Positions 22,104-64,000 of a stretch of DNA of 64,000 nt are shown in pieces. Each line of letters begins with the position of its first letter. Within the stretch, counting starts at the first letter, position 1. A program made the translations under genes and the position numbers. The DNA is from Candidatus Nomurabacteria bacterium. Its GTDB lineage: Bacteria > Patescibacteriota > Minisyncoccia > Phycocordibacterales > UBA9973. The stretch lies in assembly GCA_943359485.1 (NCBI GenBank), contig CALRHR010000001.1:51141-115140 (forward strand). Reading direction: 5' to 3'. Under the pieces are notes generated by a model. It was not told the DNA's origin, did no database searches, and worked only from the letters and a program-made list of their open reading frames with translations.

Positions 22104-22267
22104 GTAAAGTATAAATAATTTTTAGAGCAAAGATTGAACTCTAACGAATCCAACAAAAATAATACGAATCGTAACATCCAAGGGTCGACGATGCAAAGCA
22201 TCGGAGATACTGAGGAGCGAAGCGACGAATGTACTGTTTTTTGTTTTGTTTCGTTCTAATTAACTTT

Positions 22268-23910
<1,643 letters not shown>

Positions 23911-24138
23911 TTGAAAACTATCCCGGTCCTCTTCGGAGGGCTGAGTGTCAGACCCGTTCTGACCGGATTTATTGAGTCGGTATTGTGTCGCTCAATTGAC
24001 GACACAATAGTTTTTGCTCAAACTTAAAATGAGCTAGACTATATGGAAAGACATATAAAATAAAAAAGTTTCAGCCTTCGGGCTGATCCGCCTCTGGCGG
24101 AAAAAAGGAACGAAACAAAACAAAGGACAGTAACAAAA

Positions 24139-58783: not shown

Positions 58784-59653
58784 TTAACGGCTCCTGCTGC
58801 CACCTTGAGGATTTCGACGTCCTGAAGAACTGTCAGCACTGCGAGTTTGCGGAGAAGTAGTAGTTCTTTCTGCTCCTCCCGTTCCTCCTGTTGTTCCCAT
58901 TGTGCCCGTTCTTGCCTTTGTTCCTGTGCGTGCGGGGCTCCCAGTGTGTCCAATGCTTCCAGTGTGTCCGGTGTCCACTCGATTTCGAATCACTCCAGGT
59001 CTATATACAACTCCTCGGCTTCCATAACCACTCCTATGAATGATCACTGGACGAGAAGCGTCTGCTTGTTTCTTTGCAACACCAGCTGCAATTTTAGCTA
59101 ATTTCTCGTCATGTTTTAATTGCGCCTTTGTTTTTTCGCTAGTTGTTAATTCAGATATCAAGTTGCCATCAGCATCGTACTTTCTTTTTAAAGCACCTCT
59201 TCCGGCAGCTACTTTTTCAGTATTAGCTGTGGTAAAAAGTTTTTCATCGTCTTCTTGAGTTCTAGATAATTTTTCTTCATCTTCATCTTCAGCTTTAGCT
59301 ATTTCTACATCCGCTTTCGCCAAAGCAAGTGCCTTTTCAGCTGCTTGAATATCAGCTTTATTTTCTGGATCTTCCTTAGCAACACTAAGGTCATAGGTAG
59401 CTTCCACAACAGCTTTTTCAGCTTTAGCAATAGCTGCCTTACTTGCTTGCATTTCTGGAGACAAAAAAGTTCCTGCTGCTATGGCGGCAGTAGCGAATTT
59501 TCTTCCAATTCCGCTATGATTATTTTTAGTTCTTGCTATTTCTCTAGCCCTCAGCTCTGAAGCTGTTAACTCCGTAGTTCCTTCTTCTGGAATAAATTCA
59601 CGTCTAGAACCTCCTATATTTTCCATTCCCATAGTATTTTTAGTTTCAGCCAT
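58784..59653 (-). CDS. hypothetical protein (Ala/Lys/Glu-rich helical region, Gly/Thr/Arg-rich tail)
   Basis: A 289-aa ORF. No motif recognised. Confidence 0.45.
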   Translation of the reverse strand: MAETKNTMGMENIGGSRREFIPEEGTTELTASELRAREIARTKNNHSGIGRKFATAAIAAGTFLSPEMQASKAAIAKAEKAVVEATYDLSVAKEDPENKADIQAAEKALALAKADVEIAKAEDEDEEKLSRTQEDDEKLFTTANTEKVAAGRGALKRKYDADGNLISELTTSEKTKAQLKHDEKLAKIAAGVAKKQADASRPVIIHRSGYGSRGVVYRPGVIRNRVDTGHTGSIGHTGSPARTGTKARTGTMGTTGGTGGAERTTTSPQTRSADSSSGRRNPQGGSRSR

Positions 59654-59810
59654 AGGTCATCGACTCTGAGAGTCTTAGACTGATGAGCTGATCCGCCTTT
59701 GGCGGAAATTATTAATAAATTAAACTTTCCTAAATTATACTTTATATTGCAAGATTTTACAACCTTATACTAAGATAAGTGTATTATGGTATATAAAACC
59801 TTTTTGTCAA

Positions 59811-59895
59811 TGGTGCTGGAGGGGGGACTCGAACCCCCAAGCCTTGCGGCACTAGTTCCTAAGACTAGCGCGTATACCAATTCCGCCACTCCAGC
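59811..59895 (-). tRNA. tRNA-Leu (anticodon UAG), CCA encoded
   Basis: The reverse complement reads GCTGGAGTGGCGGAATTGGTA...CTAGT-CTTAGGA-ACTAG, then a long variable arm, GGGGGTTCGAGTCCCCC and CTCCAGCACCA. Confidence 0.9.
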
Positions 59896-60036
59896 GTCTT
59901 TTCAAATATACTTCGTATTTGAAATTTCGATTCACGAAACCGACGCTGGAGTGTCGGCCTCCTCACTTTGTTCGGATGAAAAATAAAGCAGTTTATTTTT
60001 CATCCACTCCAGCTTCTAAAGTGCTCATGCACTTTG

Positions 60037-60109
60037 TGCGTCCAGAAGGGATCGAACCTTCGACCTTATCCTTAAGAGGGATCTGCTCTACCAGCTGAGC
60101 TATGGACGC
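60037..60109 (-). tRNA. tRNA-Lys (anticodon CUU)
   Basis: The reverse complement reads GCGTCCATAGCTCAGCTGGTAGAGC...CTCTTAA...GAAGGTTCGATCCCTTCTGGACGCA. Confidence 0.9.
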
Positions 60110-60251
60110 AAATATATTCAATTTTAAAACAAGACTTTACCATTAATAATCTTTCGACCTACCAAAACAGCTATGGACGCAAATATATTTAATTTTTAAA
60201 CAAGACTTTACCACCAACAATCTAACGATTTACCAAAACAGCTAAGGGCGC
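60098..60251. repeat. 71-bp tandem repeat duplicating the tRNA-Lys upstream region plus the first 12 nt of a tRNA
   Basis: AGCTATGGACGC occurs at 60098 and 60169, and AGCTAAGGGCGC at 60240. The intervening ~59 nt are about 85% identical by eye. Confidence 0.75.
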
Positions 60252-60292
60252 ATGTTTAATTTTCTAAAATAATTACAAATTTATAATTATTC

Positions 60293-60377
60293 TGGTGCTC
60301 GGGATGGGAGTCGAACCCATACCCCTTACGAGATTCGATTTTAAGTCGAACGCGTATACCAATTCCGCCACCCGAGC
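60293..60377 (-). tRNA. tRNA-Leu (anticodon UAA), CCA encoded
   Basis: The reverse complement reads GCTCGGGTGGCGGAATTGGTA...TTCGA-CTTAAAA-TCGAA, then a long variable arm, ATGGGTTCGACTCCCAT and CCCGAGCACCA. Confidence 0.9.
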
Positions 60378-60570
60378 AGTTGTCTAAGTCTAACTGAAAA
60401 AAGTATTTTTTTCAATCCCTATTTACAGATTACATATCAGGTTATATAATATTCAGATGAGTATGGAAACTTCCGATCCCCAACTATCATTAGGAAATTC
60501 TGAGCTCTTGGAAGACCTAAAGTCACTCGTTGCTAAAAGATTATAAAAAATGAGATAGTATATTATTTAT

Positions 60571-61089
60571 ATGTCGGAAAAACTATTCAAAAGTGTCCCT
60601 AGTGCAGTTATTGAGAGAACTGAAATGGGTATGGTGGGACAAGTAAGAGAACTCGTAAGATTGATTCTTTGGGATAAAGTTCTGCGCGATAAACTTGTAG
60701 ACAATCCAATTGGAAAAGAAGGTCTGGATGCACTCAAGAGGCTCGGCAAAAATTTTTCTATTGTTCTTGCGGATAGTGTCCCCGTCTTAGGATCCGTTGT
60801 TCATTGGAGTGCAGATGTCTTAAAATTATCAAAACATGATGCAACTCCGGATGTTTCCAAATTAACAGCATGGGGAGCAAATATAATTGATGTATTAACT
60901 CTTGATACTATTCCCTCATATTGGATTCAAGCAGCTCTTCAATTGAGAAAAGATCTACCTAAGCTTCAGGCATTATTGAAACTTATTCAGAAGATACGCA
61001 CAGAAGAGATGGAAGATTATGAGGAAAATCAATCTCAAGTTGATGGTGCAATAAGAGTTTTTGGCACCGAAGAAAGAGATGAAAAATAA
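60571..61089 (+). CDS. hypothetical protein
   Basis: A 172-aa ORF. TATATT (60559-60564) lies 6 nt before the ATG. Confidence 0.5.
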   Translation: MSEKLFKSVPSAVIERTEMGMVGQVRELVRLILWDKVLRDKLVDNPIGKEGLDALKRLGKNFSIVLADSVPVLGSVVHWSADVLKLSKHDATPDVSKLTAWGANIIDVLTLDTIPSYWIQAALQLRKDLPKLQALLKLIQKIRTEEMEDYEENQSQVDGAIRVFGTEERDEK

Positions 61090-61092
61090 AAT

Positions 61093-61323
61093 ATGGATAA
61101 AAAAGAAGCTTTAAAAATACTTATAGAACACAGTTTTGTCTTCACTAAAGATGTGCAAGAAAAATTGATTGCGGGTATTCCCGCTATGACTTTGCGAGAT
61201 GTTGATGCTCTGGGCAAGCTTTTAGCGTCACTAAAACAAAAGAGTATTATTTCTTATGATGCTGACATGAAGAAAATAAATCAAATGATTTTGGTGGTTG
61301 AAAAAGAAAAGGGAAGTGTCTGA
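61093..61323 (+). CDS. hypothetical protein
   Basis: A 76-aa ORF lying 3 nt after the upstream stop. Confidence 0.45.
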   Translation: MDKKEALKILIEHSFVFTKDVQEKLIAGIPAMTLRDVDALGKLLASLKQKSIISYDADMKKINQMILVVEKEKGSV

Positions 61324-61341
61324 TGTTTTTCTGTTTCTTTG

Positions 61342-61413
61342 AGGCGTGGGTGGGAATCGAACCCACGCATGTCGGTTTTGCAGACCGAAGCGTTACCATT
61401 TCGCCACCACGCC
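61342..61413 (-). tRNA. tRNA-Cys (anticodon GCA)
   Basis: The reverse complement reads GGCGTGGTGGCGAAATGGTAACGC-T-TCGGT-CTGCAAA-ACCGA...GTGGGTTCGATTCCCACCCACGCCT. Confidence 0.88.
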
Positions 61414-62133
61414 TTTTAAATGAAAATCGATTATTTTTCTAATTTTCCTATCAACAACCTTTGGTCGTAATTCAAAGTAGTTATTGAATATTTTAAATTT
61501 TCGCATAAAAAATGAATTAATGCTAGTGCCTTTGTATATTAGTTTGAATATTTGTAGAGAATCTTTTGTGTTGTATATTGCTTGGAAAGATCTCTTACTT
61601 GAATAAATTTTACCTTCTTTAATCCCAATTTTTCTAAAAACATGATTCATTTTTTCAAGAAATATTTTACTACCACTAGTAAATATCACACGAACCCTTT
61701 TTATTATTAATTTTTGGGTTTTACCTTTGGTTTGTGCAAAGTGAACACATCCATCTCCATCAAAATATCCCCTCATAAAATGACCTAAGTATTTTTGTGG
61801 AACTTTTGGGAACTTTATAGTTAGAGATTTGTTTGGATATAGACCTAATCTAAAAAGGTCATTGTATATTTTATGACTACCTATTCTTAACGCAAAGCAA
61901 ACTTTTCCTCTGATAAAATTCGACCTTTTCTGGTTTGTTTTGTGTTCTGAACCCAACCATGTTTTTATTCTTTCTATGGAATCTTTATCTGTGCTAGCTA
62001 TTTGGATATATTTACCACGCATATAAGGTGAATCATCCAAACTTCCATCAGCATAAATATATCCCAAAACATAGGCCATATTCGGGGACCATTTTTCGAA
62101 GAATTTTTCATTAACTTTATATTTTATTCCCAC
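61393..62133 (-). CDS. LAGLIDADG-family homing endonuclease-like protein (double motif)
   Basis: Two motifs are present: LGYIYADGS and MRGYFDGDGC. The start is GTG with TATAAT 6 nt upstream. The last 21 nt overlap tRNA-Cys. Confidence 0.75.
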   Translation of the reverse strand: MGIKYKVNEKFFEKWSPNMAYVLGYIYADGSLDDSPYMRGKYIQIASTDKDSIERIKTWLGSEHKTNQKRSNFIRGKVCFALRIGSHKIYNDLFRLGLYPNKSLTIKFPKVPQKYLGHFMRGYFDGDGCVHFAQTKGKTQKLIIKRVRVIFTSGSKIFLEKMNHVFRKIGIKEGKIYSSKRSFQAIYNTKDSLQIFKLIYKGTSINSFFMRKFKIFNNYFELRPKVVDRKIRKIIDFHLKGVVAKW

Positions 62134-62173
62134 TTTTATATTATAAGTGGTAATTAATTATACTGCAACTTGA

Positions 62174-62494
62174 TTACTTTTCTCGTAGCAATTCGTCAAT
62201 TTTTTGGCGGTTTTTTTCACCCAGATCAATGGCAATGTCGACAAAGGGGATGGTCTTGACGGGCATGTTTTTTTTCAAGTATTCCCGCAGTTCTGGTCTT
62301 TTGCGTTTGGCAAATTCTAGCGCGGTTTTTTCTTTTGAATCTGGAAGTACTGTAATAAATATCGTTGCCCGTTTTAAGTCGGGGGAACAGGTGGCGGCTA
62401 TCACGGTAATAAGTGAAGTTTTATTGTTTTCTCTTCCCAAAAAAATTGCCGCTAATTCTTTTATTTGATTTGCAACTTTATTATTTCTCTCCAT
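62174..62494 (-). CDS. rbfA: ribosome-binding factor A
   Basis: RNNKVANQIKELAAIFL...ATIFITVLPD is an RbfA-like pattern. It lies downstream of infB, in conserved synteny. Confidence 0.8.
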   Translation of the reverse strand: MERNNKVANQIKELAAIFLGRENNKTSLITVIAATCSPDLKRATIFITVLPDSKEKTALEFAKRKRPELREYLKKNMPVKTIPFVDIAIDLGEKNRQKIDELLREK

Positions 62495-62521
62495 AATTTT
62501 AGATTAAGAATGTTTAAAAAA

Positions 62522-64000
62522 TTATTTCTGCGCCACACTAAATAATTCCACGACATCACCCGCTACGATTTCTATTTTAGATTCTACCATCATGCCAAAT
62601 TCCTTTCCCTCGGATACTTCGCTGGTTTTCATTTTACCTTGTTCCAAGTTTACGATTTTTCCACGACCGATTTCGAAATCTCGACGCATGATTTTAACCG
62701 TTCCATTTAGAACCATGGTTCCCTCGATTACTTTTCCGCCAACGATTTGGCGCTCGCGGGTTCGACTGAAAGCTCGGATGATCTTTGCTTTGCCAGTTGT
62801 TAACATGGTTTCGATCCTCGGCCGGCGGTTTTCCATTTCGACTTCCAGCCACTCGGTCAGTTTATAGATAATATTAAATAAGTTAATCCGGAGGCCTCTT
62901 TTTTGGGCAAGTTCTGTAGCATTTTTATCTATTTTGACATTGAAGCCAATAACGATGATGTTTCCACTGTCGGAAATATTTTTTATGTCTGATTCGCCGA
63001 TAGTTCCTACGCTCTTACTAATGATTTTAAATTCTGCTCCCTCGGTTTTTATCTTTGCTATTTCTTTTTCGATGGCTTCGAGAGTCCCGGAGACATCGGC
63101 TTTTAATATTATTGGAATTATTTTTTTTGTTGATTCTGTTTCGCGAGTAGAAAGGTCAGACCTTTTTGAATTCTCAAGGTCAGACCTTGGGGAATTATTT
63201 TTTATATATTCTTCGGCATCTTTTTTATTTTGAAAAGATTTAAAGATTGCTCCAACTCTCGGCATTTTGTCGAAGCCGACAATCCGTACCGGGGAAGACA
63301 TGGAGACAGAATCCATCATACTCCCTTTGAAATTTTCTATGATGCGCGTGGAGCAGATACAATCTTCTACCACAACCGTCATTCCTTTTTTCAAGGTTCC
63401 ATTTTTAACAATTAGCGTCGCCACGATTCCACGCTTAGAATCCAAATTTGCTTCAATGACGACTCCGGAGGCAGCTTCATCGATATTTCCAGTAAAGTTT
63501 TCCATCTCGGCCATAATTAAGATAAGTGACAGGAGGTTATCCACTCCTGTGCCTGTCTTTGCAGAAATTTCTACGCACGGGATCTTGCCACCATAATTTT
63601 CCAGATAAATTTCTTTTTCTACTAATTCTGTTTTTGTTTTTTCTACATTTGCGCCTGGCTTGTCTATCTTGTTGATTGCTACGATGCACACAGTGTTGCT
63701 TTCATTTATAGTTTTCCAGGCTTCCAATGTCTGTGGCTTGACGCCATCTTCTGCAGAAACTACCAATATTGCGATGTCGGCCACGGCTGCTCCGCGCTCG
63801 CGCATTTTCGAAAAAGCTTCATGGCCAGGTGTATCTAGAAAGGTGATTTTGCGACTAGCAAAATCATCCCGAGATTTTCGAGGGATAGCTCGATTCACTT
63901 CGTTCTCTCGGGATTTCGGTTCCTCTTGAGGAACCTCAACTTCATAGGCAGAAATATTTTGAGTTATGCCACCGATTTCACCTTCTGTCACATTTGTTTT
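62522..64000 (-). CDS. infB: translation initiation factor IF-2, N-terminus beyond window edge
   Basis: G-domain motifs are present ([24 protein letters not shown]), followed by C-terminal beta-barrel domains. Confidence 0.92.

Follow-up and report, generated by a model that had tools for sequence, protein, structure and literature searches.

In the usual view, homing endonuclease genes survive in conserved genes by hiding in self-splicing introns or inteins, and free-standing homing endonucleases are known mainly from phages and organelles. Here we analyse a free-standing gene of the LAGLIDADG family whose open reading frame (ORF) runs into the 5' end of tRNA-Cys in the genome of an ultrasmall Candidatus Nomurabacteria bacterium. 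The stretch under study, hereafter the window, comprises 64,000 nt (contig CALRHR010000001.1, positions 51,141 to 115,140 of the forward strand), and its own numbering is used throughout. That free-standing homing endonuclease genes can be associated with tRNA genes is already known. The closest analogue, SegB of phage T4, is a free-standing GIY-YIG homing endonuclease encoded among the clustered tRNA genes of T4; the site it recognises contains conserved tRNA-gene sequence, and it spreads itself together with the adjoining tRNA region into relatives that lack it (PMC2330249). In cyanobacteria, an HNH homing endonuclease gene is conserved upstream of tRNA L-array operons and has been proposed to disseminate the array (PMC8421152). 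In bacteria of the candidate phyla radiation (CPR) and in archaea, LAGLIDADG endonucleases have been found in rRNA insertions and introns (PMC11270868).

LAGLIDADG genes flanking tRNAs are not mentioned in the papers that deal with rRNA insertions in CPR bacteria or with tRNA introns in Patescibacteria, and the literature that we searched, broader searches included, contained no description of an endonuclease gene that fills a tRNA leader and overlaps the tRNA, nor of such genes with an element-borne promoter, a leaderless start or an association with several tRNA identities. From the comparisons presented below, we consider it fairly probable that the window gene belongs to a free-standing, site-specific LAGLIDADG homing endonuclease cassette of ~790 bp, which has replaced the promoter-plus-leader region before tRNA-Cys.

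An endonuclease gene that ends inside tRNA-Cys

The ORF occupies positions 61393..62133 of the minus strand and encodes 246 aa, from a GTG start to a TAA stop at 61393-61395. It lies between rbfA and a tRNA-Cys/Leu/Lys/Leu cluster, as a free-standing gene among tRNA genes. tRNA-Cys(GCA), a canonical cloverleaf on the same strand (61341..61413 by ARAGORN; 61342..61413 by Rfam, 69.5 bits), shares 21 nt with it (61393..61413): codons 241-246, reading GVVAKW, are nt 1-18 of the tRNA, and the stop codon is nt 19-21, in the D-loop. At the opposite end, a -10 box TATAAT (62140..62145, minus strand) ends 6 nt before the GTG (62131-62133), which is the geometry of a leaderless mRNA, and a -35-like hexamer TTGCAG (62163..62168, minus strand) is placed 17 nt upstream of TATAAT. 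The rbfA stop codon is found 5 nt beyond this hexamer; rbfA (62174..62494, minus strand; Pfam RBFA, E=9.6e-14) thus forms the left flank of the insertion site, with infB upstream of it (62522-63991). A first-pass annotation of the DNA had described a 246-aa double-motif LAGLIDADG ORF on the minus strand between rbfA and tRNA-Cys, with its own TATAAT-N6-GTG start and with a 3' end and D-loop stop encoded by the tRNA, and Pfam, ARAGORN and Rfam bear out each of these statements.

Its further claim, that the gene is free-standing and has no recognisable intron, also holds. Rfam detected no intron family or ribozyme at E<=1 over positions 59000-64000, nor at the gathering score in the whole window, where it reported only tRNAs and the 16S rRNA. 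It is therefore very improbable that the ORF is carried by a group I or archaeal-type intron of a tRNA or rRNA gene, or by an intein, even though the CPR LAGLIDADG genes described so far sit in rRNA insertions (PMC11270868) and the best structural match of the window protein is an rRNA-intron enzyme. The tRNA-Cys gene is contiguous and uninterrupted at its score of 69.5 bits, and immediately upstream of the ORF stand a promoter and the stop codon of rbfA, not an upstream tRNA half. For an intein, Pfam should have found a Hint/intein domain, which is absent, and the ORF has a start of its own 6 nt after the -10 box.

Linkage to tRNA-Cys across relatives

A scan of one genome per species gave ten loci, from Nomurabacteria, Paceibacterota, Levybacteria, Falkowbacteria and other Patescibacteria metagenome-assembled genomes, with homologues 48-82% identical to the window protein. 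The ORF ends at tRNA-Cys(GCA) in all ten, from 5 nt before the tRNA to 90 nt inside it. The same arrangement was seen in seven further contexts reached by other routes (L047, L081, L097, L131, L133, L134 and L139; L numbers denote individual loci), and in the homologous loci examined the end of the ORF falls at -10 to +90 nt relative to the tRNA-Cys start in 17/17. Of the ten genome loci, nine keep the order infB-rbfA-ORF-tRNA-Cys. Where the gene upstream is not rbfA, as in L010 and L133, the linkage to tRNA-Cys is retained, so the partner of the ORF is the tRNA and not rbfA.

The C-termini tell a similar story. We scored the tails of the 120 closest database homologues (~225-250 aa long), and approximately 92 of them end in peptides derived from tRNA-Cys in one of two frames. 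The largest class ends in ..GHVVK* (58/120), followed by ..GVVAKW* as in the window (11/120), by tails of the ..KAMW* type, which read the same tRNA in the other frame (11/120), and by proteins that read into or through the tRNA (..VVKKLTRxSAKP..; 12/120). The tails of the remaining 28 were other or unclear, and in the two of these contexts that were read, L133 and L134, the ORF stops 8-10 nt short of the tRNA. In a broader comparison, which used a small tRNA reference set, a peptide from a tRNA 5' end was found at the C-terminus of 17/150 family representatives and of 0/600 control pseudo-termini. Abutment to the tRNA is thus the conserved trait, while the frame and length of the overlap and the tail peptide vary. 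The fusion to a tRNA gene that the first-pass annotation had emphasised therefore stands as far as abutment is concerned (17/17), but the GVVAKW tail and the overlap itself are not conserved: ends range from -10 to +90 nt, two frames are used and some homologues read through.

Family, fold and constraint

The window protein matches Pfam LAGLIDADG_3 (E=4.3e-12), and this is the sole Pfam domain in the ORF. Motif 1 (..LGYIYADGS, residues 19-31; 62041..62079, minus strand) contains the catalytic Asp29 at 62047-62049, and motif 2 (..RGYFDGDGC, residues 116-129; 61747..61788, minus strand) contains the catalytic Asp127 at 61753-61755. Both aspartates are intact and, in a 68-sequence alignment, invariant together with neighbouring G/D residues (D125, G126, D127 and G128 in motif 2), which answers the question about the catalytic acidic residues that the first-pass annotation had raised. 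The AlphaFold2 model has a mean predicted local distance difference test score (pLDDT) of 89.8 and a predicted template modelling score (pTM) of 0.87, with helices and strands in the order expected for two alpha-beta-beta-alpha-beta-beta-alpha domains; the tRNA-encoded tail (residues 241-246) is an exception, with a mean pLDDT of 39 and values <50 for residues 243-246. The best Foldseek match is I-Tsp061I (E 1.9e-11), an archaeal rRNA-intron enzyme (PDB 2dch) and the only solved sequence relative, followed by intein endonuclease domains, I-AniI, I-SceI, the bI3 maturase and relatives of I-OnuI. By sequence and fold, the protein is a bona fide single-chain, double-motif member of the LAGLIDADG family, and the intact active-site residues together with the modelled fold suggest that it is probably an active enzyme.

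Pairwise ratios of nonsynonymous to synonymous substitution rates (dN/dS) of 0.07-0.15 indicate strong purifying selection. Identity at synonymous sites is ~50% and, apart from slight increases around motif 2 and near the 3' end, flat along the ORF; since synonymous sites are so little conserved, the constraint acts on the protein. A profile search at E<=1e-30 returned 758 clusters (50% identity), within a far larger LAGLIDADG_3 superfamily. These data refute the possibility that the ORF is a chance read-through or a decaying, non-functional pseudogene with a meaningless tRNA overlap. The predicted disorder of the tRNA-encoded tail and the variable frame and length of the overlap among relatives would fit such an origin, but more than 100 intact homologues of ~245 aa, the low dN/dS, the invariant catalytic residues, the abutment to tRNA-Cys in 17/17 contexts and the excess of tRNA peptides at true termini (17/150 versus 0/600) leave it hardly any credibility.

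Gene callers disagree on ORFs of this family, as seen in the database entries P0001 (228 aa), P0030 (302 aa), P0043, P0052 and others. Many entries begin at the internal Met19, and others extend through the whole tRNA. Public annotations of the tRNA-Cys endonuclease family are thus systematically truncated or over-extended.

A promoter specific to the occupied loci

All rbfA-linked copies carry the block TTGCAGTATAnnnwwTTACCACyTATAAT, then 6-7 nt, and then GTGGG, so that the GTG start is kept in every one of them. The block was found only in loci that bear the endonuclease, and once in the window. We also considered whether it might represent a promoter type used genome-wide, and rejected this idea, the motif being confined to the cassette. 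In 17/17 loci, sister families included (see below), 6-7 nt separate the end of a -10-like hexamer from the start codon, and the spacing is the same despite unrelated promoters in L010, L047, L081 and L131 and in the sister-family loci L124 and L132. There is no space for a Shine-Dalgarno sequence between the -10 box and the start. Because of this spacing, and because such a sequence would have no room, the mRNA appears to be leaderless, and the ORF, beginning at the transcription start, would then take up all of the pre-tRNA leader.

A scan for an internal tRNA-Cys promoter in the 3' part of the ORF gave nothing convincing, and synonymous identity shows just the flat course (~0.5) and slight 3' increase noted above, so that such a promoter is neither favoured nor disfavoured by these data. 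The first-pass annotation had offered co-transcription, with release of the tRNA by ribonuclease P (RNase P), as one reading of the overlap. Both would follow from the geometry, given that another promoter has no room, that the -10 spacing recurs in 17/17 loci and that a deleted copy (described below) keeps the promoter.

Within the promoter, the spacer segment (A)TTACCAC(T/C) (TTACCACT; ATTACCAC) beside the -10 box is near-invariant in the window, L001-L009, L097, L136 and L139. In the window, the invariant segment TTACCACT lies at 62146..62153 on the minus strand, its one exact occurrence there.

Occupied, empty and deleted sites

Metagenome contigs were scanned with a tRNA-Cys anticodon and T-arm pattern that is blind to upstream content, and many of the loci recovered have the order infB-rbfA-tRNA-Cys without the endonuclease. 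Empty loci include L022 (rbfA 84% and IF-2 70% identical to the window), L083 (73% for both) and L142 (rbfA 85%). L022 and L083 nest within the host clade of the window, whose members are ~70% identical to one another in IF-2, and the same clade (IF-2 ~70%) contains empty L142 as well as the occupied loci of the window, L001-L004 and L139. In the empty sites, ~45 nt separate rbfA from the tRNA and hold a different promoter, TTGATA-N17-TATAGT, followed by a leader of ~11 nt. Alignment of occupied and empty loci shows that the whole spacer is swapped for a cassette of ~790 nt, promoter plus ORF, the right edge of which is tRNA position 1. Comparison with relatives lacking the ORF, which the first-pass annotation had suggested as a check, therefore does define the insertion site.

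The distribution is patchy even among the nearest relatives. The five closest rbfA relatives with usable contigs comprise one occupied locus (L139, endonuclease 81% identical), one empty locus (L142) and three rearranged ones (L138, L140 and L141). An unbiased sample of tRNA-Cys loci, chosen for a CPR-type T-loop and sufficient upstream sequence, contained one intact copy and one remnant among 18. The remnant, L097, still has the promoter of the cassette, its GTG and the final ~75 codons, GHVVK* overlap included, and has lost both LAGLIDADG motifs. Its promoter may have been kept because the host would depend on it. Taken together, the occupied, empty and remnant loci, with the homologue always at the 5' edge of tRNA-Cys, support the homing site at or next to the tRNA that was proposed at first. 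A comparison of occupied L002 with empty L022 for a recombination breakpoint was uninformative, since near-identity is limited to the tRNAs and the spacers are different.

tRNA genes are well-known targets of integration, which raises the possibility that the gene belongs to a phage, plasmid or integrative island that targets the tRNA. The borders of the insertion make this exceedingly unlikely. The inserted segment is ~790 bp long with a single ORF, no integrase and no repeats; it adjoins the 5' and not the 3' end of the tRNA; its flanks are the core genes infB and rbfA; and the only match to phage records, in two cyanophages, is tRNA-Cys itself.

Loci of other kinds were also encountered. 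In L138 (2327-2499), L140 (2332-2618) and L141 (2322-2354), tRNA-Cys is inverted beside rbfA and there is no endonuclease, and in L138 and L140 tRNA-Leu(taa) is inverted along with it; the locus thus appears prone to rearrangement. The 1-kb gap between rbfA and tRNA-Cys in L033 was considered as a candidate for another endonuclease, and holds an ordinary DHH-family gene. Partial tRNA-Cys-like 5' fragments occur ~60 nt upstream of the intact tRNA-Cys in L118 (GGCCGCGTGGCCAAGTGGTAAGACGAGAGTCTGC...) and ~100 nt upstream of it in L122, and may be scars of past recombination. The tRNA itself comes in two kinds at this locus, as seen when the window, L001-L010, L022, L047 and L097 are compared: the window and L001 have a canonical elbow, with D-loop AAUGGUAA and T-loop UUCGAUU, and many relatives have D-loop AGUAGCUAA (G19 -> C) with T-loop UGCAAAU (U55 -> G), which looks like a covarying contact.

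Sister families at other tRNAs

The same placement recurs at other tRNA identities. At tRNA-Leu(UAA), L124 has a 229-aa LAGLIDADG ORF that is ~28% identical to the window protein, starts with TATAAT-N6-ATG and ends 23 nt inside the tRNA. Among the 120 closest homologues of L124, 74 have the C-terminus ..GPGAxIGRQPRLKIE, a translation of tRNA-Leu(UAA) that continues through the anticodon loop, and in L135 the ORF overlaps this tRNA by 47 nt. At tRNA-Asp(GUC), LAGLIDADG ORFs lie between tRNA-Met(cat) and tRNA-Asp in L132 (1356-2254) and L143 (59-883), and end 24 nt and 15 nt, respectively, inside tRNA-Asp. In L143, an in-frame ATG 9 nt past tRNA-Met allows a longer ORF to be read than the called gene, which has a more downstream start. 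Similarly, a LAGLIDADG ORF reads through tRNA-Val(GAC) in L084 and another stops 5 nt before tRNA-Leu(GAG) in L060, so that these two tRNAs probably have the same placement. An exception is a paralogue in L103 (435-1175, numbered with tRNA-Cys on the + strand), which starts right after tRNA-Leu(taa) and is followed by a protein gene and not a tRNA.

Based on these families, we tentatively propose a generalisation that we hold to be possible, if somewhat short of probable: Patescibacteria may harbour a class of intron- and intein-free homing endonuclease genes that serve as pre-tRNA 5' leaders or as spacers between tRNAs, each family being tied to one tRNA identity (Cys-GCA, Leu-UAA, Asp-GUC and others). 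Each leaderless ORF would extend from the transcription start into the tRNA; RNase P, together with 3' processing of any upstream tRNA, would free both products, cut off the stop codon and throttle the enzyme; and the captured tRNA promoter would make the element hard to delete.

Other features of the window

The remainder of the ancestral tRNA cluster, tRNA-Leu(taa), tRNA-Lys(ctt) and tRNA-Leu(tag), occupies 59811..60377 on the minus strand. An insert of ~960 nt (60378-61340) parts tRNA-Cys from tRNA-Leu(taa), which in relatives follows tRNA-Cys after 20-40 nt. The insert contains two plus-strand ORFs, 60571-61089 (172 aa) and 61093-61323 (76 aa), neither with a Pfam match. The 16S rRNA gene (22266-23911) is 1646 nt long against a model of 1533 positions, that is, ~110 nt extra, and carries no endonuclease-sized insertion. 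A search of the 64,000 nt for a second copy or paralogue of the endonuclease found none.

A model for the cassette

We envisage that a single RNA from the cassette promoter would serve at once as a leaderless mRNA and as the 5' leader of pre-tRNA-Cys. Cleavage by RNase P at tRNA position +1 would yield a normal tRNA, so the insertion would be costless to the host and would need no intron; RNase P would thereby do for this element what self-splicing does for endonucleases carried by introns. Its cut would also take away the stop codon and leave an mRNA coding for residues 1-240, the complete folded domain, and such stop-less messages would be directed to ribosome rescue, keeping endonuclease output low. 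The enzyme would cut endonuclease-free alleles at or near the junction between the leader and tRNA-Cys, and repair from an occupied allele would copy the cassette in, with homology arms provided by the tRNA genes and by the conserved 3' end of rbfA. Finally, since the native tRNA promoter is replaced, the host tRNA would come to depend on the cassette promoter.

Several points weigh against this explanation. We infer every step of the mechanism, that is, the cleavage, the target site, the transcript and its processing. Every rbfA-linked copy keeps its GTG, yet in model bacteria leaderless mRNAs start poorly at GUG. The promoter spacer is near-invariant across clades whose IF-2 is 40-50% identical, a conservation that this explanation leaves unaccounted for and that could reflect an operator or part of a recognition site. 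No near-identical pair of genomes differing only by the element was found: an exact look-up of rbfA returned the same strain only, and the next rbfA is 88% identical. The 5' halves of tRNA-Cys show no systematic difference between occupied and empty alleles (G2A/C71T occurs only in L002-L004), so these sequences offer no explanation of how occupied alleles would escape self-cleavage. In addition, the identity matrix of the endonuclease is strongly correlated with that of IF-2 (Mantel r=0.77, p~4e-4; r=0.93 between the two host markers), so the element appears to have persisted largely vertically or been transferred mostly among close relatives. Between host clades, moreover, the endonuclease is 58-67% identical against 40-51% for the C-terminal half of IF-2, a level of conservation that also fits a host-beneficial role.

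These last observations are what one would expect of a domesticated LAGLIDADG protein, an old host gene transmitted vertically that acts as a DNA-binding regulator of the tRNA operon or as an RNA-binding helper in pre-tRNA maturation, is co-transcribed with tRNA-Cys only incidentally and has been lost in some lineages. The tracking of host identity, a dN/dS of 0.07-0.15, a protein more conserved between clades than IF-2 and RbfA, and a promoter spacer that could be an operator would all suit such a gene, and LAGLIDADG proteins are known to turn into maturases, one of which, the bI3 maturase, is among the fold matches. We nonetheless regard domestication as unlikely. A host gene of this kind should not be patchy within one clade, with clean empty sites that use a different promoter, nor occupy only ~10% of the unbiased sample, nor leave an internally deleted remnant such as L097. 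Furthermore, both catalytic aspartates, usually lost in domesticated relatives, are invariant, Pfam finds no WhiA or helix-turn-helix (HTH) domain, and the independent sister families at other tRNAs form the pattern of site-specific invasion. We therefore continue to favour a site-specific homing endonuclease cassette as the explanation of the window locus.

Implications and comparison with known systems

The recurrence of this layout at tRNA-Cys among many relatives, as well as at further tRNAs, suggests that the insertion is made harmless by normal trimming of the tRNA, and not by an intron. If this is true, the pre-tRNA leader would be a third way to render an insertion into a conserved target harmless, one in which RNase P of the host removes it, and it would help to explain the many LAGLIDADG genes in genome-reduced CPR bacteria. 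It would also predict natural bacterial mRNAs that lose their stop codon by tRNA processing, together with a conserved leaderless GUG start. From a practical point of view, the family would provide a set of compact (~240 aa) single-chain meganucleases whose likely targets are the 5' junctions of tRNA genes.

The arrangement recalls several described systems and differs from each of them. Like the LAGLIDADG enzymes of rRNA insertions, the window protein belongs to the same enzyme family, is found in the same host group and is associated with a highly conserved RNA gene. However, those enzymes are encoded inside the RNA gene and need splicing or excision, whereas the window ORF lies in the 5' leader of the tRNA. 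As with the cyanobacterial HNH gene, which is co-regulated with its array, an endonuclease gene precedes a tRNA operon; in contrast to the window ORF, the HNH gene is separate, does not overlap the tRNA, and is tied to a large mobile tRNA array instead of one core tRNA.

Organelles offer two parallels, in that their transcripts are punctuated by tRNAs and they contain free-standing LAGLIDADG ORFs. As in organellar punctuation, the mRNA at these loci is bounded by tRNA genes, would presumably be freed by the enzymes that process tRNAs, and has a stop codon that is not secured; in L132 and L143, with the ORF between tRNA-Met and tRNA-Asp, there are tRNAs on both sides of the mRNA, as in organelles. 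What sets these loci apart is a bacterial chromosome, a promoter-proximal ORF that appears leaderless, and families tied to particular tRNA identities. The Ty3 retroelement and the TRE5 elements of Dictyostelium insert just upstream of tRNA genes, and so occupy the same niche, a few nucleotides before a tRNA gene, where insertions are tolerated. Unlike the window element, they use an integrase guided by Pol III factors, and their hosts are eukaryotes.

With SegB, the window gene shares the free-standing, non-intron location among tRNA genes. SegB differs in being a GIY-YIG enzyme borne by a phage; its ORF is not joined to the start of any tRNA, and it has no known role in providing a promoter for the tRNA. 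The window ORF, in contrast, encodes a LAGLIDADG protein in a chromosomal infB-rbfA context, with cleavage and homing activities that are so far putative.

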